A DNA stretch of 64,000 nt, from contig JAHREW010000029.1 of NCBI GenBank assembly GCA_020883125.1, positions 9,712 through 73,711 on the forward strand, in the 5' to 3' direction. Shown here piece by piece: positions 6,004 through 56,776 of this stretch (position 1 is its first letter; the number at the start of each line of letters is the position of its first letter). The DNA comes from Microcoleus sp. CAWBG506 (GTDB lineage: Bacteria; Cyanobacteriota; Cyanobacteriia; Cyanobacteriales; Microcoleaceae). The notes under the pieces were generated by a model. That model searched no databases and was not told where the DNA came from. It worked only from the letters and a program-made list of their open reading frames with translations. Made by a program: the position numbers and the translations under genes.

Positions 6004-6369
6004 TTGCTATCTATGAAAATACAATCATCCGTCTTAGTCCACCTAGGATTTGGCAAATATGTGCGATCGGACAAAGTAACAGCAGTCATCCCAATTGAAG
6101 AAGAACGTGGCCCCGGACGGCGCACTTTCGTGCACATAGACGGCGAAGCAGACCCAATCGTTGCTTCCCGCGCTGAAGACACAATTATCCGCGATTTAGT
6201 CCAAGAACCACGGGAAATTACTCAAGCTCGCCAACAACAGGAAATCCTCCAAGATTTGCTGGCAGATTTGAGCAATGTCAATGTCACCGTGCGCCGAATT
6301 AGCCGCGATGAAGGTGGACTAGACCTCGAACGTTTAGAGCGCCGAATTCGCCAAATTTTAGAAGCCTAA
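6004..6369 (+). CDS. Hypothetical protein; N-terminus weakly reminiscent of RemA/DUF370
   Basis: Clean 121-aa ORF (ATG probably 6013); LVHLGFGKYVRSDKVTAV resembles RemA-type INIGFGN.V...I.A; family call unverified. Confidence 0.7.
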   Translation: MLSMKIQSSVLVHLGFGKYVRSDKVTAVIPIEEERGPGRRTFVHIDGEADPIVASRAEDTIIRDLVQEPREITQARQQQEILQDLLADLSNVNVTVRRISRDEGGLDLERLERRIRQILEA

Positions 6370-6466
6370 AAACAAAAGACCGCCCCTGCGGTCTGTCTCC
6401 CAGTCCGCTCAAATCGCCGATTTCCATAGGAGATTGTTCAGCCAGATTGTTAACCCACATTTAATA

Positions 6467-8350
6467 TTACCCGATCGCGCTTAAGTGCGATCGAAAATAT
6501 TGCCGATACAAATCGCACCGGGGCACGCATTCACTCCCCTGCAATTTCACTAACCCCAAGCTATCTAATTTAAATGCTTGCATTGCCTTTAATTTTACTG
6601 GAGAATCTGCCACTGCAATCTCTCTCATCCCCGTGACCAAGTCTGGATATTCTTCCAAATTCCATAATTGGCGACGCAAATGGTCGCTGTAAATTCCAGC
6701 TTCAGCAATCGCAGTTTCTTGTAATTCATTAATAGTTAATTCTGACTGCGAAAAGTGATATAATGCAACTCGCACCAGATAAGGATGTCCGCCCACAATT
6801 GCCATCAATTTTTCAACTTCTTGATGAGACCAATGCAAGTTGTGGCGCGCTGCTAAATCTTCGATTTGTTCGGCGTTGAATTCCGGCAAATCAACAGGTA
6901 ATCCCACGTTGAAAGGCGATTGATTGATATTCATCGGGATATAAACTTCCGTGGAATGAACTACAATTAATCGTAGTTTTTTCCAGATATCGCGTCGCTT
7001 CGATTCTTCGTGCCACGCCCGCAGCAGTCCTAAAAAGTCTTCGGCAATGTCGGGATATTGAAAAACGCGATCGATCTCGTCTAATCCTAACACCAAAGGA
7101 GTGTCGATTTGGGGCAACAAATATTTTTCAAAGTAATCTTTGCAGTTAACTTTGCTCCCAAAAATTTCATCCCAATAATCGTCGAGTTGATTGGGTATGT
7201 GTAATTCTCGCCCTACATAGGCACAAAACCACTTGAGAAATTTATCAAGATTGGCAAATACATGTTTATCAACTAATTGAAAAGTGAGCGGAACTGTGCG
7301 ATAATCTTGACAGGATGCGTGGTGCAAAATTTTGGCCATTAAAGAAGTTTTTCCCATCTGTCGGGGAGCTTTAATTCTAATTAAGGCGCTGGGCTGCAAA
7401 ATAGTTTGATAACACCGTTCTTCGATGGGAGGACGTTCTACATAAAATTGAGAAGTGACATCCACTTGTCCTCCCGGCAATTCTGGTTCTGCTGTGGGTA
7501 AAGGGATGTTATGGCTAGTAATTTTTAATACTTGATTCTGGATTAAATCTGCTGGTTCATCTTTGATAGGGGCGGCACTTTCTGCTAACAAACTCATAAT
7601 TTCTTCGATCAAAATTGGAGTATCTGCGGTTGTTTGCCATTCCCTTTGTTTGATGCGGTAAAGATAGCCTCGCAAGTCGTGATTGAGAGGCTCATTCAGG
7701 GAAAAACCGACGCGAATTGGTAAAAGCACTGGCTTTTTGTCAGCGCGAGAATCTTGCAATTCTTTGGCTTTTTGAACTTGATAAGTTAGCAGTTCGCTCT
7801 GGTTGACAGTAGGTGGCAATAACAATAATAAATAATCGCATTCTTTGAGGAATAAGTTAATGCGATCGAACCAATTATCTCCTAATTTAATGCTGTTTTC
7901 GATGGTAAAGACTGTATGCCCGATCGCACTTAAGGCCATTTCCAACTGTTTGCCTAATTCGCGATCGGGCTCAAGGCTATGATAGCTGATAAAAATCTTA
8001 ACACTTCGGCTGCTAGGGGCTGTTTCTTCAGTCGGTGGCAAATTCCTCGGCCCATCGGCATCTTCCCCATCATCTAGTTTAGCCGATCGATGGTCGCCAT
8101 TGGCTAAAGTCAAATCAAAAGCAGCAAACAATTGCCGAATTTTACTCTCGTCGGCACCTTCTCTACCCTGCCTAATTTTGCTGACTGTATCGGCACCAAC
8201 GCCAGACTCAGCCTCTACTTCGGTCAGAGTACCTCTAATGTTATATCGGTCAGACCATTCTTGGATCGCCTCATTAAGCTTCTTTAAGCCTGGGGCGGTG
8301 AGAATTCGACCGCGATCGCGTTTTGACTTGATCACTTCGCTTGCACTCAA
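6467..8350 (-). CDS. XRE-like HTH + TIR + AAA-like (AAA_35-type) STAND protein
   Basis: N-terminal HTH-like segment; KIFISYH TIR start; Walker A APRQMGKTS, Walker B LVLGLDEID; C-terminal GGHPYLVR. Confidence 0.85.
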   Translation of the reverse strand: MSASEVIKSKRDRGRILTAPGLKKLNEAIQEWSDRYNIRGTLTEVEAESGVGADTVSKIRQGREGADESKIRQLFAAFDLTLANGDHRSAKLDDGEDADGPRNLPPTEETAPSSRSVKIFISYHSLEPDRELGKQLEMALSAIGHTVFTIENSIKLGDNWFDRINLFLKECDYLLLLLPPTVNQSELLTYQVQKAKELQDSRADKKPVLLPIRVGFSLNEPLNHDLRGYLYRIKQREWQTTADTPILIEEIMSLLAESAAPIKDEPADLIQNQVLKITSHNIPLPTAEPELPGGQVDVTSQFYVERPPIEERCYQTILQPSALIRIKAPRQMGKTSLMAKILHHASCQDYRTVPLTFQLVDKHVFANLDKFLKWFCAYVGRELHIPNQLDDYWDEIFGSKVNCKDYFEKYLLPQIDTPLVLGLDEIDRVFQYPDIAEDFLGLLRAWHEESKRRDIWKKLRLIVVHSTEVYIPMNINQSPFNVGLPVDLPEFNAEQIEDLAARHNLHWSHQEVEKLMAIVGGHPYLVRVALYHFSQSELTINELQETAIAEAGIYSDHLRRQLWNLEEYPDLVTGMREIAVADSPVKLKAMQAFKLDSLGLVKLQGSECVPRCDLYRQYFRSHLSAIG

Positions 8351-30708: not shown

Positions 30709-32964
30709 TTAGGGGATATATTTGGGTTGAAAATTACGCAACCGCAAAGCATTAGTCAGGACGGAAACTGAACTAAAAGCCATGGCACCACCGGCGATGA
30801 TTGGACTTAGTAGCCAGCCAAAAATGGGATATAAAATACCTGCTGCGATCGGAATTCCAGCGATGTTGTAAATAAAGGCAAAAAACAGGTTTTCGCGGAT
30901 GTTGCGCATGGTGGCGCGCGACAGTTGAATGGCTGTAACTATTCCTTGCAAGTCTCCAGAAATTAGGGTTATGTCGCTCGCTGCGATCGCCACATCTGTC
31001 CCGGTACCGATCGCAATTCCCACATCCGCTAGGGCCAAAGCTGGAGCATCGTTGATTCCATCTCCCACCATCGCTACAATTTTGCCTTGTGCTTGCAGTG
31101 CTTGGATTTTAGCTGCTTTTTGGTCTGGTCTAACTTCTGCAAAAATGCGATCGATCCCAACAGCATGGGCGATGGACTCCGCAGTTGTGCGGTTGTCTCC
31201 TGTGAGCATCACCACTTCTAAACCCAGTTTTTGCAGTGCTTTCACCGCCCGCGCCGAAGACGGTTTGAGGGCATCGGCAATGCCCAGAATCGCCTCAATT
31301 TTGCCCTCCACAGCCATCCAAACCACAGTTTTACTTGCAGATTCCCAAGCTTTGGCGCGGAGTTCCAAATAATCAGTATCAAAGCCTAATTCCTGCATCC
31401 ATCTGAGTGTTCCCAGGGCGATCGACTTTCCCTCCACAACCCCCCGGACGCCACTTCCGGCGATCGCCTCAAAATCCTTAACATCTGTTAAAATTACCTC
31501 TTGAGATTCACCATATCTCACCACAGCTTCACCGACAGGATGCTCAGAATTTCGCTCCACAGACGCTGCCAATTTCAGCAGTTTTAATTCATTGCTGTTC
31601 GCGCTTCCTTTAATTGTGACAAAATCAGTGACAGTCGGCTTGCCTTCCGTGATAGTCCCAGTTTTATCTAACACAATGACTTGAATTTTATGAGCCAGTT
31701 CTAAACTCTCAGCTCCTTTAATTAAAACTCCATTTTCTGCACCTTTACCAGTCCCCACCATCACCGCCGTCGGAGTTGCCAAACCCAAAGCACAAGGACA
31801 GGCAATAATCAGCACTTCCACCATGGTAACTGTTGCCAAAGTCAAGTTTCCCGTCGCATTAAACCAAATGATAAAAGTAGCTAAAGCAATGGCTATTACG
31901 GCGGGAACAAACCAACCAGTCACCTCATCTGCCAACTTTTGAATCGGTGCTTTAGACCCCTGGGCATCCTGCACAATCTTGACAATTTGAGCTAAAAATG
32001 TATCCTGACCAATCCTAGTAGTACGAAACTTAAAGCTGCCAGTTTTGTTAATTGTCGAGCCGATAACTTCGTCACCCACTTGCTTTTTGACTGGCAAACT
32101 TTCCCCTGTTACCATTGCTTCATCTATGGTGGAATAGCCTTCAATCACCTCTCCATCTACGGGAATTTGTTCCCCTGGCCGCACCTGCACGATATCGCCA
32201 ATTTTCACTTGGGCTAATGGCACTTCCAACTCTTGCCCGTTGCGAACAATCAGAGCCGTTTTCGCTTGCAAACCCATGAGTTTCCGAATCGCCTCAGAAG
32301 TCTCTCCCTTCGCCCGATTCTCTAGGGTTTTACCAAGCAAAATAAGGGCAATCACACTCGCTGCAACTTCATAATAAACGCTGGGAATCAAACCCTGGGC
32401 TAGGAAAAATCCGGGAAAAAGTGTTACACATACAGAATAAAAGTAAGCAGAACTGGTTCCCAAAACAATCAGGGTATCCATTGTCGCTAGGCGGCGTTTT
32501 AGCGATTTCCACGCTCCTATATAAAATGAGTTACCACACCAGAATTGTACTGGTGCTGTCAGCACTAATTGCAGCCAAAAATTGTGCAGCCATCCGGGAA
32601 TAAATGGCAAATGCCAACCAGTCATAGCTGGAATGGAACCTGTAAATAGTAACAGGCTAATCATACCTGCTGTCCACAATTTACGTTGCAAAACTTGAGA
32701 TTCAGCTTGACGAGTTGCTTGCTCGGTGTCATCCTCGCCCTGGGTCATTTCTGGAAGCGGAAAAGCTTTGTATCCCGCCGCATCAACAGCTTCTTGAATT
32801 GTTGCTAAGCTGGTTTTTTGGGAGTCGTATTGGATGCTTGCTTGTTCCATGCCAAAGTTGACATTGCACTCAATGACACCGGGAACGGATTTAATTGCTT
32901 GTTCAATGGAAGAGGCACAGGAGGCACAACTCATGCCTTGGAGTTTGACTGTGAGATTATCCAT
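30709..32964 (-). CDS. pacS: Cu(I)-translocating P1B-type ATPase (PacS/CopA-like)
   Basis: GMSCASC metal-binding domain; TGES; [10 protein letters not shown]; DKTGT; GDGINDAP; YN and MAFSS TM motifs. Confidence 0.9.
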
Positions 32965-33017: not shown

Positions 33018-33212
33018 TTAAAGCGCTGGATAACCAACAGAAGCGATGGCTTTTTTCAGTTCATTTTCTGGCTTCACGCTTTGAATTGTCACCAATTTCG
33101 TCTTAATATCTGCCTCAACAACTGCGGCTGGATCGACGGTTTTGACTGCTTGTGCGATCGTATTGGCACAAGCTGAACAAGCCATTTTGGGGACTTTTAA
33201 CTGTAGAGTCAT
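33018..33212 (-). CDS. atx1: Copper chaperone Atx1/CopZ
   Basis: 64 aa with MACSAC; directly upstream of the ATPase. Confidence 0.88.
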   Translation of the reverse strand: MTLQLKVPKMACSACANTIAQAVKTVDPAAVVEADIKTKLVTIQSVKPENELKKAIASVGYPAL

Positions 33213-33261: not shown

Positions 33262-33293
33262 ATTATACAGTCTCCTGTTAGCAGAATAGTCAA
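33262..33293 (-). promoter_or_regulatory. MerR-type promoter of atx1-pacS-cupredoxin
   Basis: Minus strand TTGACT-20 bp (ATTCTGCT|AACAGGAG imperfect dyad)-TATAAT. Confidence 0.7.
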
Positions 33294-33322
33294 CTCAATT
33301 TTAGATTTGAGATCTTCACAAA

Positions 33323-33355
33323 TTTCATCCTAATTTCATATCTCCGTGACAAACT
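33323..33355 (+). promoter_or_regulatory. CopR-type box 1 with -10, upstream of copM-like gene
   Basis: TTTCAT-cctaa-TTTCAT, 10 nt, then (TGA)CAAACT. Confidence 0.85.
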
Positions 33356-34202: not shown

Positions 34203-34240
34203 CCAATGTTGTATTTATTTTTACCGACTTATTTACCATA

Positions 34241-34273
34241 TTTCATCCTGATTTCATTGCGAGCTGCAAAACT
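34241..34273 (+). promoter_or_regulatory. CopR-type box 2 with -10, upstream of the RND adaptor gene
   Basis: TTTCAT-cctga-TTTCAT, 10 nt, then (TGC)AAAACT. Confidence 0.85.
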
Positions 34274-36327: not shown

Positions 36328-39300
36328 ATGTTCAGCACTATTCTCAGATGGGTAATTAACCGCCGCTGGCTAGTCGTTCTCGCCACGATTATTATTAGTC
36401 TTTGGACAGTATATATCATCCCCAAAATGCCCCTTGATGTCTTCCCGCCTTTCGCACCACCGCAGGTGGAAATCCAAACGGAAGCACCAGGTTTAGCGCC
36501 GGAAGAAATCGAGTCTTTGGTAACATTGCCGATCGAGAGTGCGATTAATGGAACTCCGGGGGTGACAGCAGTGCGATCTTCCTCTGCTGTGGGTATTTCT
36601 GTGGTTAAAGTTATCTTTGATTGGGGAACAGAAATTTATCAAGCACGCCAGTTGATTACAGAAAGGTTGCAGCAAGCTCAAAGCAAGCTTCCCGCAGGAG
36701 TAGAAGCACCGCAAATTTCTCCGACAACTTCTCCGGTAGGCACTGTGATTACCTATGCTTTTACATCAGAAACTACTTCTTTAATGGAAGTGCGCCGTCT
36801 GGTTGATTGGCAAGTTACCAATCGCCTATTAGCAGTGACTGGTGTTGCTCAAGTGGTAGCTTATGGCGGCGAACAAAGGCAGTATCAAGTATTAGTTACA
36901 CCTGCAAAATTGAAAGCTTTTAATGTTTCGTTGCAGCAAGTATCGGAAGCTGTAGCTGCTGCGAATGTTAACGCCCCCGGTGGCTATTTGATTACGCCGG
37001 ATAAAGAAACTTTGATTCGGGGTGTGGGGCGGATTGAATCGGTGGCAGATTTGCAGCAATCTGCGATCGCCTCTCGCCAAGGAATCGTCGTCAGAATTGG
37101 GGATGTAGCTGATGTCAAAATTGGTGCTGCTATCAAGCGGGGCGATGGCAGTTTTAACGGCAAAAAAGCTGTGATTGTGATGGTAAACAGACAGCCGATC
37201 GCTGATACTCCCACGGTAACTCAAGCTGTGGAAGCGGCAATGGCCCAGGTGCAGCAAGCTTTGCCCAAAGATATTAAAGTTACTGTTACTTTCCGCCAGG
37301 AAGAGTATATCAATTCTTCGGTGGAAAATGTGCGATCGGCTTTAGTGGAAGGCAGTATCATTGTCACGGTTATTCTGATCCCGTTTTTGATGAATTGGCG
37401 GACTCTGACGGTGGTTTTGCTCGATTTCTTCCTAACTTGGCTGTTCGGGCTGCTGGCGATGAATTGGCTGGGGCTGGGATTGAATACGATGACCTTGGGT
37501 GGGTTGTCGGTGGCGATCGGCACTGCGATCGACGATGCGATCGTCTATGCCGAAAATACCTACCGCAACTTGAGAGAAAACACGGCTTCTCATCATCCGC
37601 GCCCGGTGATGGATGTGATTTTTGATGGCAGTCAGGAGGTGCGAGATTCGTTAATTGGAGCGACTGTTATTGGCATTGTTGTGTTTTCGCCAATTTTTAC
37701 TTTGCCCGGTGTAGAAGGTCGAATTTTTACGCCGATGGGGATTACTTATCTGGTAGTTGTGGTGATTTCTAGTCTGGAATCGCTGTTAATATCTCCGGCA
37801 CTTTGCGCTATTTTGTTGCCTAACAAAAAGATGAGTGCTGAAGAACCTTGGTTGCCGAGATTCTGCAAAAAGATATATCACTTTTTTATAGAATTGTCAA
37901 TGCGCTATTCGGCGATTATTTTAACTTTAGCTGCTGCTAGTATGGTGGCGGCATTAATTATTTTGCCATCTTTTGGACGGGTGTTTTTGCCGGAGTTTCA
38001 GGAGCAAACTTTGGTGAATACTGTTCTACTTTATCCGGGCGTGTCTTTGGAAACGACGAATAGTGCGGCTTTTGCGATCGAAGATGCACTTAAGGATGAT
38101 ACCAGGTTTTCATACGTGCAAGTGCGATCGGGCAGAGCTCCCGGTGATGCTGATGCTGCGGGTGTCAATTTAGCTCACATTGATATCGGTTTGAGCGAGG
38201 AAGGAATGAAAAATCGGCAGAAAACTTTGGAATCATTGCGGCAGGAATTTGGGAAATTACCTGGAGTTGCACCAAATATCGGCGGTTTTATTTCTCACAG
38301 AATGGATGAGGTTTTATCCGGTGTCAGGAGTCAAATTGCTGTCAAAATCTTTGGCCCTGATTTGAATCAGCTTCGCACCATCGGCGCTCAAGTTGAAGCG
38401 CAAATGAAAACTGTTACAGGAATTGTAGACTTGCAACTGGAACCGCAAGTGCCGGTGCAGCAAATTCAAATTAAATTCAACCGCCAAGCTGCGGGTAGAT
38501 ATGGTTTGAAAGTGGGAGAACTTTCTGAAATAATTGAGACAGCTTTGAATGGGAAAGTTGTCTCTCAAGTTTTGGAATTGCAGCAAACTTTTGATTTAGT
38601 TGTCTGGTTGCAGCCTGAAGCCAGAAATAACTTAGAAACTATTCAGAATTTGTTGGTTGATACCCCCCCTCTTTCCCCCCCTTATAAAGGGGGGGATGAA
38701 ACCCCTCTTTATAAAGGGGGGGAAAGAGGGGGTAAAATTCCCCTCGGCCAAGTTGCTACTGTAAAATACGGTACGGGCCCAAATACGATTAATCGCGAGA
38801 ATGTTTCTCGGTTGATTGTGGCGGCGGCTAATGCGAAAGGTCGGGATTTGCGATCGGTGGTGAATGAAATTAAAGCTAAAGTTAAGCGAGAGGTACAGTT
38901 GCCTTTTGGCTATTTTATCCAATATGGTGGTCAATTTGAGGCCGAGCAAAGAGCTTCGCAAAATATTATGATGTTTAGTGCGATCGCCTTTGTGGTCATT
39001 ACAGTATTAATGTACTTATCCGTCAAGTCAATTCCTTCAACTGCGATGATTATGATCAATTTGCCGATCGGATTAGTGGGAGGTGTAATTTCGGTAGCTT
39101 TGACTGGCGGTATAATTTCCGTAGCTTCTTTAGTTGGCTTTGTCACTTTATTTGGCGTTGCTACTCGTAACGGCTTGTTATTAGTAGACAACTATAACAC
39201 TAAATTTGCCGAAGGAATGCCTTTTAAGGAAGCAATTATTAAAGGCTCGATGGAACGGCTCAATGCTATTTTGATGACGGCTTCAACTTCAGCTTTAGGT

Positions 39301-39510
39301 TTAGCACCTTTAGTCTTAGAAGGCGGCCCCGGAAAAGAAATTTTGCAACCGCTGTCAGTAGTAGTTTTAGGAGGATTGTTTACTTCTACAGCACTAACGC
39401 TGTTAGTTATGCCAGCTTTGTATGCTCAGTTTAGTAATTTTTTAAGACCTCAACAACCTCAGCCTGTTATTGAAGATGGTAAGGTAGTTAAAGCTGAGAT
39501 AGCGAACTAA
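36328..39510 (+). CDS. CusA/CzcA-family heavy-metal RND permease 1
   Basis: DVFPPFAPPQVEIQTEAPG; IDDAIVYAEN; ATRNG; RLNAILMT. Confidence 0.93.
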   Translation: MFSTILRWVINRRWLVVLATIIISLWTVYIIPKMPLDVFPPFAPPQVEIQTEAPGLAPEEIESLVTLPIESAINGTPGVTAVRSSSAVGISVVKVIFDWGTEIYQARQLITERLQQAQSKLPAGVEAPQISPTTSPVGTVITYAFTSETTSLMEVRRLVDWQVTNRLLAVTGVAQVVAYGGEQRQYQVLVTPAKLKAFNVSLQQVSEAVAAANVNAPGGYLITPDKETLIRGVGRIESVADLQQSAIASRQGIVVRIGDVADVKIGAAIKRGDGSFNGKKAVIVMVNRQPIADTPTVTQAVEAAMAQVQQALPKDIKVTVTFRQEEYINSSVENVRSALVEGSIIVTVILIPFLMNWRTLTVVLLDFFLTWLFGLLAMNWLGLGLNTMTLGGLSVAIGTAIDDAIVYAENTYRNLRENTASHHPRPVMDVIFDGSQEVRDSLIGATVIGIVVFSPIFTLPGVEGRIFTPMGITYLVVVVISSLESLLISPALCAILLPNKKMSAEEPWLPRFCKKIYHFFIELSMRYSAIILTLAAASMVAALIILPSFGRVFLPEFQEQTLVNTVLLYPGVSLETTNSAAFAIEDALKDDTRFSYVQVRSGRAPGDADAAGVNLAHIDIGLSEEGMKNRQKTLESLRQEFGKLPGVAPNIGGFISHRMDEVLSGVRSQIAVKIFGPDLNQLRTIGAQVEAQMKTVTGIVDLQLEPQVPVQQIQIKFNRQAAGRYGLKVGELSEIIETALNGKVVSQVLELQQTFDLVVWLQPEARNNLETIQNLLVDTPPLSPPYKGGDETPLYKGGERGGKIPLGQVATVKYGTGPNTINRENVSRLIVAAANAKGRDLRSVVNEIKAKVKREVQLPFGYFIQYGGQFEAEQRASQNIMMFSAIAFVVITVLMYLSVKSIPSTAMIMINLPIGLVGGVISVALTGGIISVASLVGFVTLFGVATRNGLLLVDNYNTKFAEGMPFKEAIIKGSMERLNAILMTASTSALGLAPLVLEGGPGKEILQPLSVVVLGGLFTSTALTLLVMPALYAQFSNFLRPQQPQPVIEDGKVVKAEIAN
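38661..38734. repeat. In-frame palindromic insertion in RND permease 1
   Basis: TACCCCCCCTCTTTCCCCCCCTTATA ... TATAAAGGGGGGGAAAGAGGGGGTA; absent at the same position in permease 2. Confidence 0.85.
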
Positions 39511-39516
39511 TAAACC

Positions 39517-39954
39517 CTACTGAACTCCCTCAATCAAACTGCAAAGTTGCTCGCCATCTGGATTGTCTAAAGCTCGATTTGTCCAAAGTTTTTGATAAGC
39601 TTCCAACTCAGCTTTGAACGCACTCATGCGCTGAATTTCCTCCTCAACGAAATCAATTTTACGACTTAATAAGTCTTGCACCAGCGGACAAGCTGTTACT
39701 CCTTGATGGCGAGATACCAAAATTTGGTGAATTTCTTGAAGAGAAAAGTTGAGTCTTTGGGCTTTCTTGATAAATTGCACTTGTCTGGCGGCATCGGCTG
39801 TGTAGTAACGGTAGCCGCTACTGCTGCGTAAGGCAGGTTCCAGTAACCCTAAGCTTTCATAGTATCGCAGGGCGCCTACAGCAACACCAGTTTGTTTGGC
39901 TAGTTCTCCAATTTTTAGTAGATGTTCTAGGGATTCTGTTTCAAATTCTTTCAT
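39517..39954 (-). CDS. MerR-family heavy-metal-responsive regulator
   Basis: LKIGELAKQTGV..GALRYYESLGLL HTH; two Cys (TACP, QLCS). Confidence 0.9.
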   Translation of the reverse strand: MKEFETESLEHLLKIGELAKQTGVAVGALRYYESLGLLEPALRSSSGYRYYTADAARQVQFIKKAQRLNFSLQEIHQILVSRHQGVTACPLVQDLLSRKIDFVEEEIQRMSAFKAELEAYQKLWTNRALDNPDGEQLCSLIEGVQ

Positions 39955-40007
39955 AGCAGTTTTAGGTAAGTTTGAACTTTATGATTATAATGGTAATCAC
40001 TTTGAGG

Positions 40008-40070
40008 AGGATACGGCAGTGCCGTTTCCCTACCCCGATTAATTGTAGAGAAACGGCACTGCCGTGTCCT
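40008..40070. repeat. GTAG-type REP palindrome
   Basis: GGATACGGCAGTGCCGTTTCCCTAC ... GTAGAGAAACGGCACTGCCGTGTCC. Confidence 0.78.
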
Positions 40071-40273
40071 TATTTCGGGTAATATTAATTCCGATGCTAC
40101 CGGATTTGATATCACTCAATTTTTCAAGATTAAATATTTTATATTCTTAACAATTGTATTGGATAAAAAAGCAGCACTAACTTAAATTTTAGTTCGTGCT
40201 GCTATCAGATATTCTCTTGCTTATCCCCTGCGAAAAATCCGCGATCGAATCTATACACGGGGCAAAAGAAGGA

Positions 40274-40420
40274 TTATTTATCGCAATTAGCCAGCGGACA
40301 GTCAGGAGTAGGAGTAGTGCAAGGGCCAGCGGCAAAGACAACAGCGGCAGTACCTGCTGTCAGGAGAATTGCCGTCAAAGCTGCGAGAGTGAATCGTTTG
40401 GTCTGAGTTGTTTTAGTCAT
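40274..40420 (-). CDS. 48-aa secreted tri-cysteine peptide (below the ORF-track cutoff)
   Basis: Hand translation MTKTTQTKRFTLAALTAILLTAGTAAVVFA|AGPCTTPTPDCPLANCDK*; Sec-type signal; dedicated promoter about 55 nt upstream. Confidence 0.75.
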   Translation of the reverse strand: MTKTTQTKRFTLAALTAILLTAGTAAVVFAAGPCTTPTPDCPLANCDK

Positions 40421-40473
40421 TAATTTTTACCTGGGAATATAGAATCGAAAAGTTTCTTCTGGAAACTATAAAT

Positions 40474-40505
40474 AGTCTAAACCCTCAAGTAGGCTTGAGA
40501 GTCAA
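40474..40505 (-). promoter_or_regulatory. MerR-type promoter with perfect dyad driving the Cys peptide
   Basis: Minus strand TTGACT-CTCAAG-CCTA-CTTGAG-GGTT-TAGACT; 20-bp spacer. Confidence 0.8.
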
Positions 40506-40582
40506 GGGGTAAATTATCAAGAATTGTAAACTTATTTTGTTTCCAATACCGCGCTCCGAATACCTGTCTGAAATTCAAAAGA

Positions 40583-40615
40583 TTTCATCGCGATTTCATT
40601 TTTGCGTGTCAACCT
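40583..40615 (+). promoter_or_regulatory. CopR-type box 3 with -10, upstream of RND permease 2
   Basis: TTTCAT-cgcga-TTTCAT, 10 nt, then (TGT)CAACCT. Confidence 0.82.
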
Positions 40616-40693
40616 AAATTGAATGGCGATTTTAACGCCCAAAAGCCAAGGATTCAAGGGGAACTACAGCAGCCGGAACCTGTAACTAATGAT

Positions 40694-43600
40694 ATGCTTA
40701 ATTCTATTGTCAAATGGTCGATCGCGCAACGGTGGCTAGTTGTCATCGCCTCCATCCTCATCACCCTTTGGGGATTGCGAGTTTTGACACAAATGCCGCT
40801 CGATGTTTTCCCCAGCTTTGCTCCCCCACAAGTCGAAATTCAAACCGAAGCACCGGGACTTGCTCCTGAAGAAGTCGAATCTCTAGTCACTCGACCCATA
40901 GAAAGTGCGATTAACGGCACTCCCGGAGTAGAAAAAGTACGCTCCTCTTCTGCTGTCGGCATTTCCGTCGTTAAAGTCATCTTTGGTTGGGATACCGAAA
41001 TTTACCGCGCTCGCCAGTTAGTAACAGAACGGTTGCAGCAAGCCCAAAATCTACTTCCTAAAGGCGTAGAAATCCCGCAAATTTCTCCCATCAGCTCTCC
41101 ACTGGGAGCCACCATTAAATATGCTTTCACTACAGATACCACACCTTTAATGGAAGTGCGGCGAATTGTGGACTGGCAAGTAAAAAATCGATTTTTAGCA
41201 GTTCCAGGTGTCACTCAAATTGTCATATTTGGCGGTGAAGAGCGCCAGTATCAAGTATTAGTAGAACCTAATAAGCTGAAACAATTTAATGTTTCATTGC
41301 AGCAAGTTACTGAAGCAGTTAAAAAAGCAAATGTCAATGCTCCGGGTGGATTTTTAATTAGCCCAGACCAAGAATTATTAATTCGGGGCGTGGGGCGAAT
41401 TGAGTCGATCGAGGATTTGAAACAATCTGCGATCGTAGCCAGAAATGGCACACCAGTGTTGCTGAGTCAAGTCGCTGACGTAAAAATCGGTGCAGCACTC
41501 CAACGCGGCGACAGCATCTTAAATGGCAAGAAAGCGATTATAGTCATCGTCAACAAACAGCCGGCTGCTGATACCCCAACCGTAACGAAGGCTGTTGAGG
41601 CCGCGATGGAGGAAATTAAACCAAGTTTACCTAAAGATGTCAAAGTTACTGTCACTTTCCGACAGGAAAATTTTATAGAAGCTTCTATCGAAAACGTGAG
41701 AGATGCTCTGCGGGATGGCATCATCATTGTGTCGATCGTACTAATCCTATTTTTAATGAACTGGCGCACCGTTATTATCAGCCTCAGCGCCCTTCCAGTG
41801 TCCTTGTTGCTGGGAATGATCGTTTTAGATTGGACAGGACAAGGCATCAACACGATGACCTTGGGAGGACTTGCTGTGGCGATCGGTTCAGTGGTAGATG
41901 ATGCGATCGTTGACATGGAAAATGTCTACCGTCGCTTGCGGGAAAACCAGCAAGCGGGAACACCAGTTCCGCCGCTAGATGTCGTGTTTAATGGCTCGGT
42001 TGAAGTGCGAGTCAGTGTATTATTTTCTACAGTAATTATTGCTGTAGTTTTTGCACCAATTTTCGCGCTCTCAGGCGTGGAAGGTCGCATTTTTACGCCG
42101 ATGGGGGTGTCCTATTTGCTATCAATTATCGCTTCAACATTGGTAGCGCTAACCTTGACTCCGGCACTATGTGCTATCCTATTAGTCGATCGCCGTTTGC
42201 CCCCAGATGAAACTTGGATTGCTCGCAAATCTCACCAATTATATCGCCCAGCTTTAATGTTTTCTATCCGCTTCCCTCAGATTGTTTTGGTAATAGCTGT
42301 TGTGGGCTTTGTAGCTTCGATGGTGATTTTACCTAGTTTGGGGCGAGTGTTTTTGCCGGAGTTTCAGGAACGCAGTTTGATTGTTGCTACTTCTCTCTAT
42401 CCTGGTGAGTCTTTAAATGCGACAAATCAAGTGGGTTTTGCGATTCAAGATGCTTTGAAAAATGACAATAATTTTGAAGCTTTAGCTTTGCGATCTGGAC
42501 GTGCTCCAGGTGATAGTGATGTCGGCGGTGTGAATTTTGGAGAAATGGATGTGGAGATTAGTTCACTGGGGGTGAAAAACCGGGAATCGACTATCGAAAA
42601 GCTGCGAAAGGAATATGCAAAAATACCCGGTGTTGCGGCTAATATTGGGGGGTTTATCTCGCATCGGATGGATGAGGTGCTATCGGGAGTCAGAAGTGCG
42701 ATCGCTGTTAAGATATTCGGGCCTGACTTGGAGCAATTAAGGGCGATCGGCAAACAAGTAGAAGCCACGATGACTGCAATTCCTGGCGTTGTAGACTTGC
42801 AATTAGAGCCGCAAGTCCCCATCAAACAGGTACAAATTAAATTCGATCGCACCGCCGCTGCTCGTTACGGTTTGGCGGTAGGCGACTTAGCAGAAGTCAT
42901 TGAAACTGCTCTCAACGGGCGAGTTGTTTCTCAAGTTTTAGAGCAACAGCAAGTGTTTGACTTGGTTGTCTGGCTCAATGAGCGCGATCGGCACAATCTA
43001 GATATTATCCGCAACTTATTAGTTGATACTCCCAGCGGACAGAAAATTCCCCTCGCACAAGTTGCCAAAGTTGACTACGGCACCGGCCCCAACACCCTCA
43101 ACCGCGAGAATGTATCCAGGCTCATTGTCGTCTCTGCTAACGTCCAAGGGCGAGATTTAGGTTCTGTCATCGCTGATATTCGCAGCCAAGTAAAACAAAA
43201 AGTGCAATTGCCATCGGGATATTACATTCAATACGGCGGTCAATTTCAGGCTCAAGAACAGGCAACTCAAACATTAATTGTAGCTGGCTTATTAGCCTTT
43301 GTCGTCATCACGGTACTGATTTACTTTGCCGTTAAAACAATTCCAGCTACCGCGATGATTATGATAAACTTACCCTTAGCATTAGTCGGAGGCGTGATTT
43401 CAGTCGCGCTAGGTGGCGGGATTATTTCAGTCGCCTCAATGGTAGGATTCATCACGTTATTCGGAGTAGCTACCCGCAACGGACTGTTGCTAGTTGATAA
43501 CTATAACAACAAGTTAGCAGATGGTATGCCTTTGCAGAAAGTCATCGTTGAGGGTTCTATGGAGCGGCTAGTCGCTATTTTGATGACTGCTCTCTCATCG

Positions 43601-43774
43601 GCCTTGGGGATGGTTCCTTTAGTAATTGGCAGCGGCGCTGGTAAAGAAATTCTACAACCGCTAGCAGTTGTAGTGCTGGGAGGATTGTTTACTTCTACTG
43701 CCTTAACGCTGTTAGTTTTGCCAGCTTTGTATTCTCTGTTTGGCAGGTTTATAGTTAATAAAACGAGTGTTTAA
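40694..43774 (+). CDS. CusA/CzcA-family heavy-metal RND permease 2
   Basis: Paralog of 36328..39510 (VDDAIVDMEN, ATRNG); ATG 40694 aligns with the paralog start, and TTG 40619 lies at the predicted promoter. Confidence 0.92.
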   Translation: MLNSIVKWSIAQRWLVVIASILITLWGLRVLTQMPLDVFPSFAPPQVEIQTEAPGLAPEEVESLVTRPIESAINGTPGVEKVRSSSAVGISVVKVIFGWDTEIYRARQLVTERLQQAQNLLPKGVEIPQISPISSPLGATIKYAFTTDTTPLMEVRRIVDWQVKNRFLAVPGVTQIVIFGGEERQYQVLVEPNKLKQFNVSLQQVTEAVKKANVNAPGGFLISPDQELLIRGVGRIESIEDLKQSAIVARNGTPVLLSQVADVKIGAALQRGDSILNGKKAIIVIVNKQPAADTPTVTKAVEAAMEEIKPSLPKDVKVTVTFRQENFIEASIENVRDALRDGIIIVSIVLILFLMNWRTVIISLSALPVSLLLGMIVLDWTGQGINTMTLGGLAVAIGSVVDDAIVDMENVYRRLRENQQAGTPVPPLDVVFNGSVEVRVSVLFSTVIIAVVFAPIFALSGVEGRIFTPMGVSYLLSIIASTLVALTLTPALCAILLVDRRLPPDETWIARKSHQLYRPALMFSIRFPQIVLVIAVVGFVASMVILPSLGRVFLPEFQERSLIVATSLYPGESLNATNQVGFAIQDALKNDNNFEALALRSGRAPGDSDVGGVNFGEMDVEISSLGVKNRESTIEKLRKEYAKIPGVAANIGGFISHRMDEVLSGVRSAIAVKIFGPDLEQLRAIGKQVEATMTAIPGVVDLQLEPQVPIKQVQIKFDRTAAARYGLAVGDLAEVIETALNGRVVSQVLEQQQVFDLVVWLNERDRHNLDIIRNLLVDTPSGQKIPLAQVAKVDYGTGPNTLNRENVSRLIVVSANVQGRDLGSVIADIRSQVKQKVQLPSGYYIQYGGQFQAQEQATQTLIVAGLLAFVVITVLIYFAVKTIPATAMIMINLPLALVGGVISVALGGGIISVASMVGFITLFGVATRNGLLLVDNYNNKLADGMPLQKVIVEGSMERLVAILMTALSSALGMVPLVIGSGAGKEILQPLAVVVLGGLFTSTALTLLVLPALYSLFGRFIVNKTSV

Positions 43775-43938: not shown

Positions 43939-43985
43939 AATTATCTTTCAACCTGAAGTAAACATTAATTTTTTTGGCACAAACC

Positions 43986-44663
43986 ATGAAAATCTTGCTA
44001 ATTGAAGACGACGATCGCATTGCCAAACCTCTAGCAGAAGATTTAAGACATCAAAATCATGCCGTCGATATAGCGAGTGACGGCATCGAAGGTTGGGATT
44101 ACATCGAATCAGTTAATTATGACCTAATTTTGTTAGATTTGATGCTACCCAAATTAGATGGAATTACGCTGTGTAAGCGTCTGCGTGCAGCTAAGTCCAA
44201 CGCTCTAATTTTGATGCTGACAGCACGAGATACAACCTCAGATAAAGTCCAAGGACTCGATGCGGGGGCTGATGATTATTTAGTTAAGCCTTTTGAATTA
44301 GAAGAATTAGCGGCAAGAATCAGAGCTTTATCTCGCAGAATTCCAGAAACCAAGCCGCTGATTTTAAGCCACAGCCATTTGCAACTAAATCCCAGTAGCT
44401 TCACCGTCACCTACGGCAATCAATCTTTATCTTTAACACCCAAAGAATATATGATATTAGAATGCTTTTTGAGAAACCCCGCTCAAGTTTTGACTCGTGC
44501 AGCAATTTTAGATAAACTGTGGGATTTCGATCGGTCTTCTGGAGAAGGCACTGTTAAGACTCACATTACAAATCTGCGGAGCAAGCTAAAAGCAGCCGGA
44601 AGCTCAGAAAATTTCATCGAAACAGTTTATGGAATTGGTTATCGTCTCAATGGCACTAACTGA
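43986..44663 (+). CDS. OmpR-family response regulator
   Basis: MKILLIEDD; LDLMLPKLDG; GADDYLVKPF; IETVYGIGYR. Confidence 0.93.
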   Translation: MKILLIEDDDRIAKPLAEDLRHQNHAVDIASDGIEGWDYIESVNYDLILLDLMLPKLDGITLCKRLRAAKSNALILMLTARDTTSDKVQGLDAGADDYLVKPFELEELAARIRALSRRIPETKPLILSHSHLQLNPSSFTVTYGNQSLSLTPKEYMILECFLRNPAQVLTRAAILDKLWDFDRSSGEGTVKTHITNLRSKLKAAGSSENFIETVYGIGYRLNGTN

Positions 44664-49499: not shown

Positions 49500-49521
49500 A
49501 AAACTTCAGCATTCTGGACAA

Positions 49522-49554
49522 TTTCATGCTAATTTCATTCTTTGGTGTGATATT
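49522..49554 (+). promoter_or_regulatory. CopR-type box 4 with -10
   Basis: TTTCAT-gctaa-TTTCAT, 10 nt, then (TGT)GATATT. Confidence 0.82.
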
Positions 49555-50089: not shown

Positions 50090-50250
50090 ATAGATAGCTA
50101 ATTCATTGATTGATGCAGTTTTATTTATGGGTGCATTATGTCAACTATCTCCAATAGTATCAACTCGGTTTATTTTTGATGAACAGGGTTGATTTTCAGT
50201 TAGATTATAGATAATTTACTCTTTTAATGATTAACTTCGATCGCCTAAAA

Positions 50251-50283
50251 TTTCATTCGGATTTCATCCCTGAAAGTCAAGCT
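50251..50283 (+). promoter_or_regulatory. CopR-type box 5 with -10
   Basis: TTTCAT-tcgga-TTTCAT, 10 nt, then CAAGCT. Confidence 0.8.
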
Positions 50284-50328: not shown

Positions 50329-50799
50329 ATGAAAAAGTTAATTTACGCTGCTGTATTCACATTTGTGCTGGCATCTAATGCCCCCGCTACTGTTGCAGGA
50401 GGAGCCATGCAAAATGCGAATATTCCTCACCTTATCCACAGCGGTGCCCATCCGAATAAAGCTCGATTTCAGGGTGCTACCCATCATTTTGAAGTTCACG
50501 TTCAGGGAAAGGCTCTTTCGGCACTGGTAATTGATTTGCCCGATGATGTGAAAATGCGTAGCGGCATTGAGATAACAAATCAATCTGGTCAAAAAATAGA
50601 GTCTCAAGTTTCTGTTAATAACCGAAAAGCGACTGTGGTTTTCTCCCAACCTGTTTCTCCTGACACCACTATATCAATTGATCTGCTGGGAATTCGGACT
50701 CCTAGTTACAGTCGGAATTGGATGTACACGATATCTGGTAAAATGGTGGGAATAAATGCAGAAATACCACTTGGTACAGTTTTAATTCAAACCTACTAA
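50329..50799 (+). CDS. Secreted DUF2808-like protein
   Basis: Signal peptide; PHLIHSGAHP; VVFSQPVSPDTTISIDL...RTP; family call from recall. Confidence 0.7.
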   Translation: MKKLIYAAVFTFVLASNAPATVAGGAMQNANIPHLIHSGAHPNKARFQGATHHFEVHVQGKALSALVIDLPDDVKMRSGIEITNQSGQKIESQVSVNNRKATVVFSQPVSPDTTISIDLLGIRTPSYSRNWMYTISGKMVGINAEIPLGTVLIQTY

Positions 50800-54711: not shown

Positions 54712-55716
54712 TTAAGTGATGACTTCAAATATACCCATGCAGCCGGCTTCGGCGATCGCATCTTGATGAGGATGAAACATATATTTTCCGCCGTACCCGT
54801 AGGTAAATTCTAAAATATGTCTTTCAGCTACTCCCATTGTGATGACATCGGCTTTTTCACTCGGAGTTAAAGTCATTCCCGTGCGATATACGTCAAAAAA
54901 GTTGCCGTGCAAGTGAAAAGTCACTGCTGCTTCGTACTCAATCATGTTGAGAACATACAGCCGAACTAGCTGATTTTTGTAGATAGAAATAGGATTATTC
55001 ATGTAATAATGTGGCAACCCGTTAAAAGCGTAAAGCTCGTTCTTTTCGTCATCGTTTACGTCATATCCTCCCATGATTAAGACCAGTTCATCTGCACTCG
55101 GACGGGGTTTTAGCGGATCGATGATGAACATACCATAGAGTCCTTTACCAATATGCCTAGTTACAGGAGCAATATGGCAGTGATATAGATGCACTCCGTA
55201 GGGAGCGGCATCGAATTCATAAATGAATACCGAACCGCTTCTCACTGGTTTAATGCCATCCATTTCGCTAGTATGAAAACCGTGAAAGTGCAGGGAGTGA
55301 GAATGTCCAGCTTTGTTAGAGAAAATGACGCGGATGCGATCGCCCTCCGTGGCCCTTAATGTCGGCCCCGGCACGCGATTATTCACGTTCCAGGTGTTGA
55401 AAGTGACGGCACTGTTAAGCTGAACGAGCGAAGTGTTAGCTTCCATGCGAAATTCTCGAATCGTGCGTCCATTTTCGCGCGTCACCGTGCCATAATCAAA
55501 ATCCCGCACAATTTGCATCGGGCTGATATTGCTGACGGTGACAGCATCAGCGGGCATTGGTGGTATTCTCGCGGCTGCTGGTCGTTTTTGAGTCAAGTTT
55601 TGAAGTGCGATCGCGCCTCCCGCTACCCCAGCACCAGCTATACCTAACTGTAGGAGTTGACGGCGACTCCAGCGCCCAGCCTTTTTCATGGCGGGACGAT
55701 CGGATAAGTCTGTCAT
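54712..55716 (-). CDS. Tat-exported two-domain multicopper oxidase
   Basis: SRRQLL Tat motif; HSLHFHG, HCH....H...L in domain 1; HLHG and HPH in domain 2. Confidence 0.88.
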   Translation of the reverse strand: MTDLSDRPAMKKAGRWSRRQLLQLGIAGAGVAGGAIALQNLTQKRPAAARIPPMPADAVTVSNISPMQIVRDFDYGTVTRENGRTIREFRMEANTSLVQLNSAVTFNTWNVNNRVPGPTLRATEGDRIRVIFSNKAGHSHSLHFHGFHTSEMDGIKPVRSGSVFIYEFDAAPYGVHLYHCHIAPVTRHIGKGLYGMFIIDPLKPRPSADELVLIMGGYDVNDDEKNELYAFNGLPHYYMNNPISIYKNQLVRLYVLNMIEYEAAVTFHLHGNFFDVYRTGMTLTPSEKADVITMGVAERHILEFTYGYGGKYMFHPHQDAIAEAGCMGIFEVIT

Positions 55717-55739: not shown

Positions 55740-55823
55740 TATTTACTCGCATTTAATTATACGACCTTACTAGCTTGTTGTCAATTATTATCAACTGCTA
55801 TCTTTTTCTGGTAAGTCATAAAA

Positions 55824-55856
55824 TTTCATGCTGATTTCATCTAAGTATGCGAGCTT
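55824..55856 (+). promoter_or_regulatory. CopR-type box 6 (autoregulatory) with -10
   Basis: TTTCAT-gctga-TTTCAT, 10 nt, then (TGC)GAGCTT. Confidence 0.8.
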
Positions 55857-56086: not shown

Positions 56087-56776
56087 ATGAGAGTTTTGCT
56101 AGTTGAAGATGAGCCAGATTTAGGAAAAGCGATCGATCGCACTTTAAAACAAGAAAAATATATAGTTGACTGGGCGCAGGATGGCAGTGAAGCTTGGGAA
56201 TATTTAGATAGTCATTGGACTCAATACAATCTGGCGATTTTTGACTGGTTGCTTCCAGGATTATCAGGATTGGAACTGCTGCGAAGATTACGTGCGAAAA
56301 ATAGCGCATTGCCAGTTTTGATGCTAACAGCAAAAGACCGAATGCAAGATAAAGTAGCGGGACTAGATGCCGGGGCTGACGATTATTTAGTTAAACCCTT
56401 TGGGATGGCGGAACTGTTAGCAAGATTGCGGGCTTTGCAAAGGCGATCGCCCCAAATTCAGCCGCAACAATTAGAGGTAGGAAATCTAATTTTAGACTGC
56501 GGAAATCGCACAGTTTTTCGGCTGGATGGCGGTGGCAAAAATCAGAGCATTTTCTTGACAAACAAAGAATTTCAATTACTAGAATACTTTATGAAACATC
56601 CGAATCAAATTGTCACAACTGACCAAATTCGGAATCAGCTATGGGAGGTTAGTGCAGATACTTTTAGCAATGTGGTAGCGGCTCAAGTGCGCTTACTGCG
56701 GCGTAAACTTGAGTCGGTTGGCGGCGCGAATCTAATTGAAACTGTACATGGTGTTGGATACCGGATGAGAAATTAA
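56087..56776 (+). CDS. copR: OmpR-family response regulator, CopR/RppA-type
   Basis: MRVLLVEDEPDLG..I..TL; FDWLLPGLSG; KPFGMAELLARLRALQRR; own TTTCAT box upstream. Confidence 0.78.
   Translation: MRVLLVEDEPDLGKAIDRTLKQEKYIVDWAQDGSEAWEYLDSHWTQYNLAIFDWLLPGLSGLELLRRLRAKNSALPVLMLTAKDRMQDKVAGLDAGADDYLVKPFGMAELLARLRALQRRSPQIQPQQLEVGNLILDCGNRTVFRLDGGGKNQSIFLTNKEFQLLEYFMKHPNQIVTTDQIRNQLWEVSADTFSNVVAAQVRLLRRKLESVGGANLIETVHGVGYRMRN

Follow-up and report, generated by a model that had tools for sequence, protein, structure and literature searches.

A predicted exported tri-cysteine peptide family linked to MerR-type promoters in cyanobacteria

The open reading frame (ORF) considered here lies on the minus strand of a 64-kb stretch of DNA from Microcoleus sp. 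CAWBG506, which is called the window in what follows and always means the stretch at its full length. It occupies positions 40274..40420 (stop codon included) and its translation, MTKTTQTKRFTLAALTAILLTAGTAAVVFAAGPCTTPTPDCPLANCDK, is a precursor of 48 amino acids (aa) with three cysteines, Cys34, Cys41 and Cys46, arranged as C-x6-C-x4-C. This is a genuine gene of a family restricted to cyanobacteria, and it is transcribed from a MerR-type promoter of its own, usually in the neighbourhood of a merR gene. We regard as moderately probable a model in which a metal-bound MerR regulator activates this promoter, the precursor is exported and cleaved, and the resulting 18-aa peptide binds Cu(I) or another soft metal outside the cytoplasm through its three thiolates.

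The minus strand of positions 39300-41200 was read and its ORFs were listed. The coding sequence was defined from this list, the ATG start, comparison with relatives and the ratio of non-synonymous to synonymous differences (pN/pS), and the start is unambiguous because an in-frame stop codon lies two codons 5' of the ATG. The first-pass annotation had described an ORF with a signal peptide and an 18-aa C-x6-C-x4-C part, and re-reading recovered the same product, its signal peptide being a prediction. Codons 1-30 (40331..40420, minus strand) encode the predicted Sec signal peptide, with K3, K8 and R9 in the n-region, a hydrophobic core and V-F-A before the predicted cut, whereas codons 31-48 (40277..40330, minus strand) encode the predicted mature peptide AGPCTTPTPDCPLANCDK with the three conserved cysteines, delimited by the family motif and pN/pS. 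A Rho-independent terminator, found by repeat search and folding, follows on the same strand at 40164..40203 (hairpin 40170-40203 plus the U-run), 70 nt past the stop codon, with a free energy of -16.4 kcal/mol, a z-score of -4.1 and then U6. In Oscillatoria nigro-viridis PCC 7112 the terminator is retained with compensatory changes (-27.5 kcal/mol, z-score -5.9). The transcription unit consists of promoter, 47-nt leader, 48 codons and terminator; having its own promoter and its own terminator, the gene is monocistronic. A generic promoter and terminator scan with fixed rules missed both the 20-bp-spacer promoter and the terminator, which were recovered by direct pattern search, repeat search and folding.

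Relatives of the peptide were found by three routes. A protein search (5.8 billion sequences) returned ten clusters of 47-48 aa with 77-98% identity, all from Microcoleus or Oscillatoria, and a profile search (1.84 billion representatives) added three more distant clusters of 46-57 aa. A genome scan gave 37 loci, cyanobacterial throughout, whose hosts are Microcoleus, Coleofasciculaceae, Scytonema hofmanni UTEX 2349, Hassallia, Spirirestis, Nodosilinea, Leptolyngbya, Leptothoe and Tildeniella. The resulting set of 32 distinct peptides, 44-48 aa long and drawn from at least three cyanobacterial orders, shares the motif PC-x-[TFI]-PT-[PV]-[DN]-CP-xx-NC; in one metagenomic variant the third cysteine is replaced by Trp. 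The first-pass annotation had made its proposal depend on conserved homologues, and these exist, in the 37 genome loci and among the 32 distinct peptides. Over all pairs of 48-codon sequences, which are not independent of one another, pN/pS is 0.41; the part formed by codons 1-30 has a value of 0.54, that formed by codons 31-48 one of 0.23. The comparison of the window with locus L018 alone shows 12 synonymous and 4 non-synonymous differences. Such low ratios indicate that the ORF is protein-coding and under purifying selection, and that the tail is its most constrained part. Pfam and NCBIfam scans of the 48-aa peptide gave no matches. The motif TPTPDCP had no match in a literature text search, and no description of a tri-cysteine peptide family was found in the literature on cyanobacterial MerR, copper and small proteins. 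PCC 7112 holds two copies of the peptide gene (AFZ08303.1 and AFZ10628.1).

The promoter is of the MerR type, that is, with a 19-20-bp spacing instead of 17 bp and a dyad operator inside the spacer. By direct reading, the -35 hexamer TTGACT (40500..40505, minus strand; the hexamer is conserved in 43 of 48 related loci) and the -10 hexamer TAGACT (40474..40479, minus strand) are separated by 20 bp, across which lies a 22-bp operator, ACTCTCAAGCCTACTTGAGGGT (40481..40502, minus strand), with 8 of its 11 pairs palindromic. Its inner dyad, CTCAAG (40494-40499), CCTA, CTTGAG (40484-40489), is perfect, so that the TTGACT/TAGACT promoter with a CTCAAG-N4-CTTGAG dyad in a 20-bp spacer, as first proposed, was found again on re-reading 40474-40505. 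The pattern TTGACTCTNNAGNNNNCTNNAGRGT occurs once in the window with no mismatches, and in none of 100 shuffles even at two mismatches.

Among the 48 related loci, 43 have TTGAC-N20-TAnnnT with ACTCT...AGRGT located 27-65 nt before the ATG, the spacer being exactly 20 bp in every one of them; the other five have point variants or, in Leptolyngbya BC1307, a rearranged form. The inner arms co-vary between lineages (CTCAAG/CTTGAG, CTCCA/TGGAG, CTCTAG/CTGGAG), the outer ACTCT/AGRGT is kept, and 6-9 of the 11 pairs are palindromic across loci against about 2.75 expected by chance. This is the sole promoter of its class within 8 kb on either side of the gene except at locus L010, where a second one with a perfect dyad, on the opposite strand, drives merR and a P1B-1 copper ATPase divergent from the peptide gene. 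Since the promoter is kept despite widely differing flanking genes, promoter and peptide gene travel as a module. The co-occurrence of signal peptide, cysteine cluster, dyad and merR neighbour, which had been proposed as a check, is thus seen across cyanobacterial genomes (promoter in 43 of 48 loci, merR in 30 of 37).

Some promoters of the family are altered. In Leptolyngbya sp. BC1307 (L008/L047:5860-5950) the right half of the operator and the -10 hexamer are replaced and the -35 region forms the loop of a long perfect hairpin, CCAGAGGAAGGGGGTTGAC-TCTCAAG-TCAACCCCCTTCCTCTGG, with no merR nearby; the near-identical metagenome copy of this locus (L009) retains the normal promoter. In PCC 7112 the left operator arm is degraded.

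The neighbouring merR-family gene (39517..39954, minus strand) encodes a probable activator of 145 aa. It lies on the same strand as the peptide gene and starts 319 nt after the peptide stop codon, which bears out the co-oriented downstream position described earlier. Pfam assigns the protein to MerR_1 (PF13411), PF00376 and MerR-DNA-bind (PF09278), so that both the winged-helix DNA-binding domain at the N-terminus and the dimerisation helix are present, and its residues 13-119 align with the CadR, MerR and CueR structures, the nearest solved relatives being Bacillus MerR, CadR, Tn501 MerR and CueR. The best NCBIfam and Protein Data Bank (PDB) matches are ZntR, CadR-PbrR and MerR, and the NCBIfam equivalogs ZntR, CadR-PbrR, MerR and CueR score 76-86 bits against cut-offs of 143-168 bits. 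Like metal-sensing members of the family, the protein has a cysteine at the start of the dimerisation helix (Cys89, aligned with Cys77 of CadR and Cys79 of Bacillus MerR) and another in the C-terminal loop (Cys138). Within its clade, which extends over many cyanobacterial lineages including Anthocerotibacter, the first loop cysteine is replaced by Trp or other residues and a cysteine at position 133 is variable, only C89 and C138 being invariant. The description of the regulator as a two-Cys MerR therefore holds, and it is a property of the clade.

merR adjoins the peptide gene in 30 of the 37 genome loci and does so in two architectures, co-oriented or divergent. In Microcoleus it is co-oriented and usually starts 300-470 nt after the peptide ATG; in a group of Microcoleus loci that we take to be of a "M. 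vaginatus type", a label of our own (L012, L016-L020, L022, L023 and L027), the distance is about 3.5-3.8 kb. The gap was read in L017 (8747-11158), where it holds genes for a 435-aa multi-pass exporter-like protein and a 366-aa pyridoxal phosphate-dependent, CysK/SbnA-like enzyme; as divergent neighbour, L017 has a gene for a 180-aa lipoprotein in place of czcA. The classical MerR layout, with merR divergent at about -177 nt, is found in Nodosilinea, Leptolyngbya and L010. The pairing with a co-oriented merR hence stands for the window and for Microcoleus, and has to give way elsewhere to a divergent merR (Nodosilinea, Leptolyngbya), to none nearby (Nostocales) or to a pseudogene (PCC 7112). 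The merR frame is interrupted by an in-frame stop in PCC 7112 (L001, 6383-6817), L021 and L027, and truncated in L022. The assignment of regulator to promoter is based on this genomic linkage, by which the neighbouring MerR is the probable activator of the peptide promoter.

Between the peptide gene and merR sits a hairpin repeat with 26-nt arms (ACGGCAGTGCCGTTTC...) at 40008-40070, to which the sub-threshold miRNA-like matches are due that were the only result of an Rfam scan of 39300-40900. In metatranscriptomes, contigs with this repeat reach depths of 10^3-10^5 and are linked to many different flanks, which identifies it as a dispersed, highly transcribed repeat. It includes a sigma-70-like promoter match pointing at merR.

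The window is a metal island, for copper in particular. A P-type ATPase gene (30709..32964, minus strand) encodes an HMA domain and the motifs CPC, N-x6-YN-x4-P and MxxSS, which are the signature of the Cu(I)/Ag(I) P1B-1 class; a cupredoxin gene lies downstream of it and a 64-aa CopZ-like ORF (MTLQLKVPKMACSAC..., 33018..33212, minus strand), too short for the 90-aa ORF list, upstream. Domain and family scans placed a membrane-fusion protein and a CzcA/CusA-type pump of the resistance-nodulation-division (RND) family at 36328..39510, and a multicopper oxidase at 54712..55716. The peptide gene has a second CzcA-type RND gene (czcA2, 40619..43774) as its divergent neighbour. No membrane-fusion gene accompanies czcA2, and after it come genes for a response regulator (RR), a histidine kinase (HK) and a PAP2 protein; its listed TTG start is probably wrong, since the ATG at 40694 (MLNSIVKW...) fits the homologues better. 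The island further includes a DUF305/CopM-like gene, this RR-HK pair, the PAP2 gene and a second RR-HK pair.

A possible second target of the MerR protein is the sequence TTGACT-N20-TATAAT at 33262..33293 (minus strand), upstream of the CopZ-like ORF and the Cu(I) ATPase; with 7 of 11 palindromic pairs its dyad is weak, and it may belong to the same regulon. Clean promoters of this class drive copZ and ATPase genes in Nostoc (L050) and at several metagenome loci.

Another element of the island is the direct repeat ATGAAAT-N4-ATGAAAT, of which the window has six copies where 0.075 would be expected, and related islands have many. All six copies (33322-33339, 34240-34257, 40582-40599, 49521-49538, 50250-50267 and 55823-55840) are read on the minus strand. 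Where this was checked (DUF305, the membrane-fusion protein gene and the ORF at 50329), the box stands about 50-60 nt before the start of a plus-strand gene; for the copy at 40582-40599 the distance to the likely czcA2 ATG is about 95 nt, and this copy lies 77 nt upstream of the peptide promoter. The repeat is probably the site recognised by the OmpR-family, CopR-like response regulators whose genes are at 43974-44663 and 56087-56776. No published CopR box was found in PMC4182526. At L010 a gene of the Csp/DUF326 copper-storage type (6359-6724), preceded by the same repeat (6203-6220), comes after the peptide gene.

Copper-related genes recur at the loci compared: both the window and L037 have DUF305 and multicopper oxidase genes, a cupredoxin is encoded in the window and also in L050, and Csp in L010 and some Microcoleus loci. 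No Zn/Cd-type (P1B-2) ATPase was recognised beside the peptide gene, all ATPases whose motifs were read (window, L010 and L050) being P1B-1. Relatives of the MerR protein with 54-60% identity have the same promoter class on different targets. In Nostoc sp. B(2019) (L050) it drives copZ, a P1B-1 ATPase and cupredoxin; in Chamaesiphon its targets are merR, a BNR protein and a secreted peptide of 56 aa (...AFA/AEEAGGCACCKKMGSMSMPMPMPMPNKK); and in Fischerella the target is a secreted protein of 102 aa that ends GCACCKSMMNNMQQMNHSNM...

What follows the promoter pattern was examined in 120 metagenome stretches, taken as an unbiased sample. merR was most frequent, followed by CopZ-like HMA proteins, P-type ATPases and peptide families: the tri-cysteine family at 3 loci, a CxCC/Met-rich family at 3 loci (leaving out L144, whose 104-aa downstream ORF appeared in one reading and was not reproduced) and a 37-aa family ending in ...GRCPFCHH at 5 intact loci plus 1 frameshifted. 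The CxCC/Met-rich peptides are 56-111 aa long, unrelated to the tri-cysteine peptides, and have a signal peptide, a low-complexity linker (absent from the 56-aa Chamaesiphon form), GC[AK]CC and a Met-rich tail (MPGMMNN, MPMPMP). Wherever the DNA upstream of their members (L048:6515-6685; L049:5526-5834, minus strand; L050:5587-5901; L135; L110) was scanned, it had this MerR-type promoter; the Nostoc member (L050) comes directly after merR. The peptides gave no meaningful Pfam or NCBIfam matches. The 37-aa family, MKKWYA followed by a hydrophobic stretch and GRCPFCHH, stands directly behind the same promoter class in L106, L146, L154, L168 and L170, and in frameshifted form in L145; its contigs have a GC content of 0.51-0.58, are probably not cyanobacterial, and in L146 and L170 include a divergent merR with about 35% identity to that of the window.

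Transcription of the peptide ORF is supported by RNA from related organisms, namely unstranded contigs from four ice metatranscriptomes of one study (X1, X4, X5 and X6) that are 88-95% identical to the island. One contig of 1.9 kb from X1, with a depth of 214, spans 40179-42087 and ends inside the terminator, where the depth falls to 16. The 3' part of the ORF has depths of 14, 44 and 67 in X4, X5 and X6, against 0-3 for merR and 2-8 for czcA2. Depths over the island vary about 100-fold, as expected for RNA. At the Scytonema hofmanni locus (L033) RNA coverage was thin and did not respect the predicted start, and an RNA search with L017 mostly matched runs sharing repeats.

The favoured mechanism can be put as follows. 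The two-Cys MerR, or a paralogue where merR is not adjacent, would occupy the 22-bp operator in the 20-bp spacer and, on binding a thiophilic cytoplasmic metal, with Cu(I) or Ag(I) as the likeliest, would re-align the -35 and -10 hexamers and switch the gene on. The 48-aa product would pass through the Sec pathway and be cut after Ala30, and a proline-stiffened 18-mer (15-18 aa in relatives) would be freed into the periplasm, or possibly into the thylakoid lumen or the medium. Its three thiolates would bind the metal, for buffering or for hand-over to efflux and sequestration machinery, for which the pumps of the heavy-metal efflux (HME) RND class, CopM/DUF305 and the multicopper oxidase nearby are candidate recipients. 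Quite unlikely, in our estimation, is the stronger version in which the 15-18-mer is an unmodified ribosomal secreted metal ligand, similar to an exo-metallothionein or a chalkophore, under a cytoplasmic Cu(I) sensor, and one of at least three unrelated tiny exported families with Cys motifs behind MerR-type promoters, the other two being the cyanobacterial CxCC/Met-rich family and the 37-aa ...GRCPFCHH family of higher-GC soil bacteria. Under the same low estimate falls a variant in which the metal-loaded peptide would be a signal for the neighbouring sensor kinases.

Several points weigh against the favoured mechanism. In the periplasm Cu(I) is usually coordinated by Met or His and not by Cys, and thiols that are free in this compartment may become oxidised. 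Six loci, four of them from Nostocales, have the gene and its promoter with merR missing within reach, and merR is disrupted in three genomes, including PCC 7112. The X1 contig runs through the promoter into czcA2 and so does not define the transcription start. The geometry of the operator and the cysteine at the ZntR-79 position resemble those of Zn/Cd/Pb sensors. Finally, the long uncharged stretch of the precursor and its borderline insertion energy make an uncleaved membrane anchor possible.

The last point leads to the alternative that fares best, although it is still unlikely: the hydrophobic segment stays uncleaved and the 48-aa product is a single-pass inner-membrane protein (N-terminus inside) with a short periplasmic Cys tail. 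It might then modulate the adjacent RND pump, as AcrZ does with AcrB, or the sensor kinase, as MgrB does with PhoQ, and thereby tie cytoplasmic metal sensing by MerR to a periplasmic CopRS-like circuit; we judge these roles as improbable as the anchor itself. The uncharged stretch is 21-24 residues long in most variants (16-19 in three), with a Kyte-Doolittle hydropathy of about 2.0-2.5 over 19 residues, as would suit an anchor. Besides, where CzcA flanks the gene (in the window, in PCC 7112 and at several loci from Microcoleus and metagenomes), its divergent neighbour is an adaptor-less RND gene with RR-HK genes behind it, and in the Nostocales loci HK and RR genes are the nearest neighbours with no merR close. 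However, elsewhere the divergent neighbour is a lipoprotein gene or merR instead of CzcA, and some loci have merR alone or unrelated contexts with neither pump nor kinase. Residue inspection also shows the features of a type I Sec signal, with a positive n-region (net +2 to +4 in the first 12 residues of the 32 variants), a hydrophobic core and small residues at -3 and -1. Position -1 of the predicted cut site is Ala in 32 of 32 variants and position -3 is V, A or L, which an anchor would not need. The apparent insertion free energy of the best 19-mer is about 0 (range -1.4 to +1.0), hence borderline between signal and anchor and not clearly negative, and the signal part evolves faster than the tail. 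Sec export with cleavage after Ala30 is the prediction that we retain.

The metal is where the second alternative arises. The ZntR site is a 22-bp palindrome, ACTCTGGAGTCGACTCCAGAGT, in a 20-bp spacer (PMC1526738), and the geometry of the peptide promoter is the same, which argues for Zn, Cd or Pb. The regulator could accordingly be a divalent sensor like ZntR, CadR or PbrR, and the peptide a periplasmic thiolate binder of Cd, Zn or Pb (or Hg), which we hold to be unlikely. In its favour, beyond the ACTCT-N12-AGRGT site, are the best database matches of the regulator and the CzcA-type RND pumps flanking the gene. A cysteine at the equivalent of ZntR-79/CadR-77, present here, is associated with +2 ions in structural work on CueR and ZntR. 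On the other hand, the clade has just two invariant cysteines, a number that fits +1 ions in linear coordination, copZ and P1B-1 ATPases of the Cu(I) type are among the targets of this clade and promoter, and no P1B-2 ATPase was recognised beside the gene among those whose motifs were read. The Met-rich MPGMM and MPMP tracts of the sister peptides, typical of Cu(I) sites, point together with CopZ and the P1B-1 pumps to Cu(I)/Ag(I). Cu(I) is thus ranked first as the inducer, Zn/Cd/Pb second, and Cu(I)/Ag(I) appears likelier than Zn or Co. Of the ZntR/CoaR-type reading initially offered, the operator geometry holds good, whereas the choice of metal is shifted by the copper context.

A third possibility is that the product is the precursor of a ribosomally synthesised and post-translationally modified peptide (RiPP), a bacteriocin or a secreted signal instead of a metal ligand. 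The short precursor and its C-terminus rich in Cys, Thr and Pro would agree with this, but the N-terminus is a hydrophobic Sec-type signal and not a RiPP leader, and no modifying enzyme or dedicated exporter is conserved nearby, the neighbourhoods sharing only the promoter and merR; it is very improbable.

Public records give relatives of the peptide, near-identical ones among them, the name 'porin' or 'OprB' (WP_333159148.1, AFZ08303.1 and WP_121968634.1). The gene had been called unannotated, and, leaving aside its absence from the annotation track, this does not hold for databases, as NCBI, JGI, ENA and Logan all have entries for this very 48-aa sequence; the gene is mis-named, not unknown to gene callers. 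A porin or OprB identity was rejected, since the product has 48 aa where several hundred are expected and no porin match in Pfam or NCBIfam. A bacterial lipoprotein was likewise rejected, as P, S or H precedes the first cysteine and positions -3 to -1 do not fit the lipobox L-[ASTVI]-[GAS]-C, and so was an SmtA-type metallothionein, given the lack of a Pfam match and the N-terminal export signal. That the ORF is no gene at all, being a chance ORF (48-aa ones are frequent) or the remnant of a porin N-terminus as the public names might suggest, has next to no probability: besides the missing porin match, length and frame are kept across three orders with an excess of synonymous changes, and promoter and terminator of its own are conserved, so that genome loci, promoter linkage and pN/pS effectively refute it.

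Among known systems, MerP of the mer operons is similar in being a Sec-exported Cys-thiolate binder (export being predicted here) produced from a MerR-activated long-spacer promoter. It differs in being a folded HMA domain of about 70 aa with CxxC that passes Hg(II) to MerT, whereas the predicted mature tri-cysteine peptide has 15-18 aa and C-x6-C-x4-C, homology to MerP is not detectable, and neither MerT nor MerA accompanies it. CueP of Salmonella, the periplasmic copper-binding product of the regulon of CueR, a MerR-family protein, would come nearest in function should Cu(I) be the inducer. It uses Cys ligands, but it is a full-size folded protein, unrelated in sequence and limited to some enterobacteria. 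The E. coli ZntR-PzntA pair likewise has a 22-bp palindrome with outer ACTCT/AGAGT and a 20-bp spacer (PMC1526738). Here, in contrast, the target is a predicted secreted peptide in a copper context and not a P-type ATPase, and the window MerR is without the loop cysteines and histidine of ZntR (85.6 bits against the cut-off of 143).

CusF, CopK and CopM (DUF305) are also small exported metal binders beside HME-RND pumps, and a DUF305 gene lies in the same island; they are, however, folded proteins of 80-200 aa with Met, His or Trp ligands and are under two-component control, not MerR. SmtA/BmtA are similarly small, Cys-rich and metal-induced (as the peptide here would be), but SmtA is a cytoplasmic protein of about 55 aa, 9 of them Cys, with a zinc-finger-like fold; its repressor is SmtB, a member of the ArsR family, and the peptide shows no sequence match to it. 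MbnA is likewise a short ribosomal peptide whose Cys end up binding copper extracellularly (copper binding being a supposition here); it has a non-hydrophobic leader, MbnBC makes an oxazolone-thioamide from its Cys, and export is dedicated, none of which is encoded at the peptide locus. As far as these comparisons go, the tri-cysteine peptide would work like MerP or CueP and appears to belong to no described family. The regulatory logic seems classical and the effector seems to be a new tiny family, one of several parallel mini-peptide families behind MerR promoters.

The copper handling of cyanobacteria outside the cytoplasm is poorly understood; plastocyanin and cytochrome oxidase need a supply, and poisoning has to be avoided. 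If the model is right, the dedicated target of a widespread cyanobacterial MerR clade, in some cases the only one nearby, is a tiny exported thiol peptide, which would be a new and very cheap way of buffering or trafficking soft metals. Cyanobacteria release strong copper-binding ligands under copper stress, and the exo-metallothionein-like version, if true, would give a molecular identity to some of them. The peptide is easily synthesised and tested, and the module is a possible compact metal-inducible promoter-regulator pair for engineering and biosensing. The finding also corrects the name 'porin', an error that databases have propagated, and it shows that genes as short as about 50 codons are systematically overlooked when they lie behind MerR promoters.

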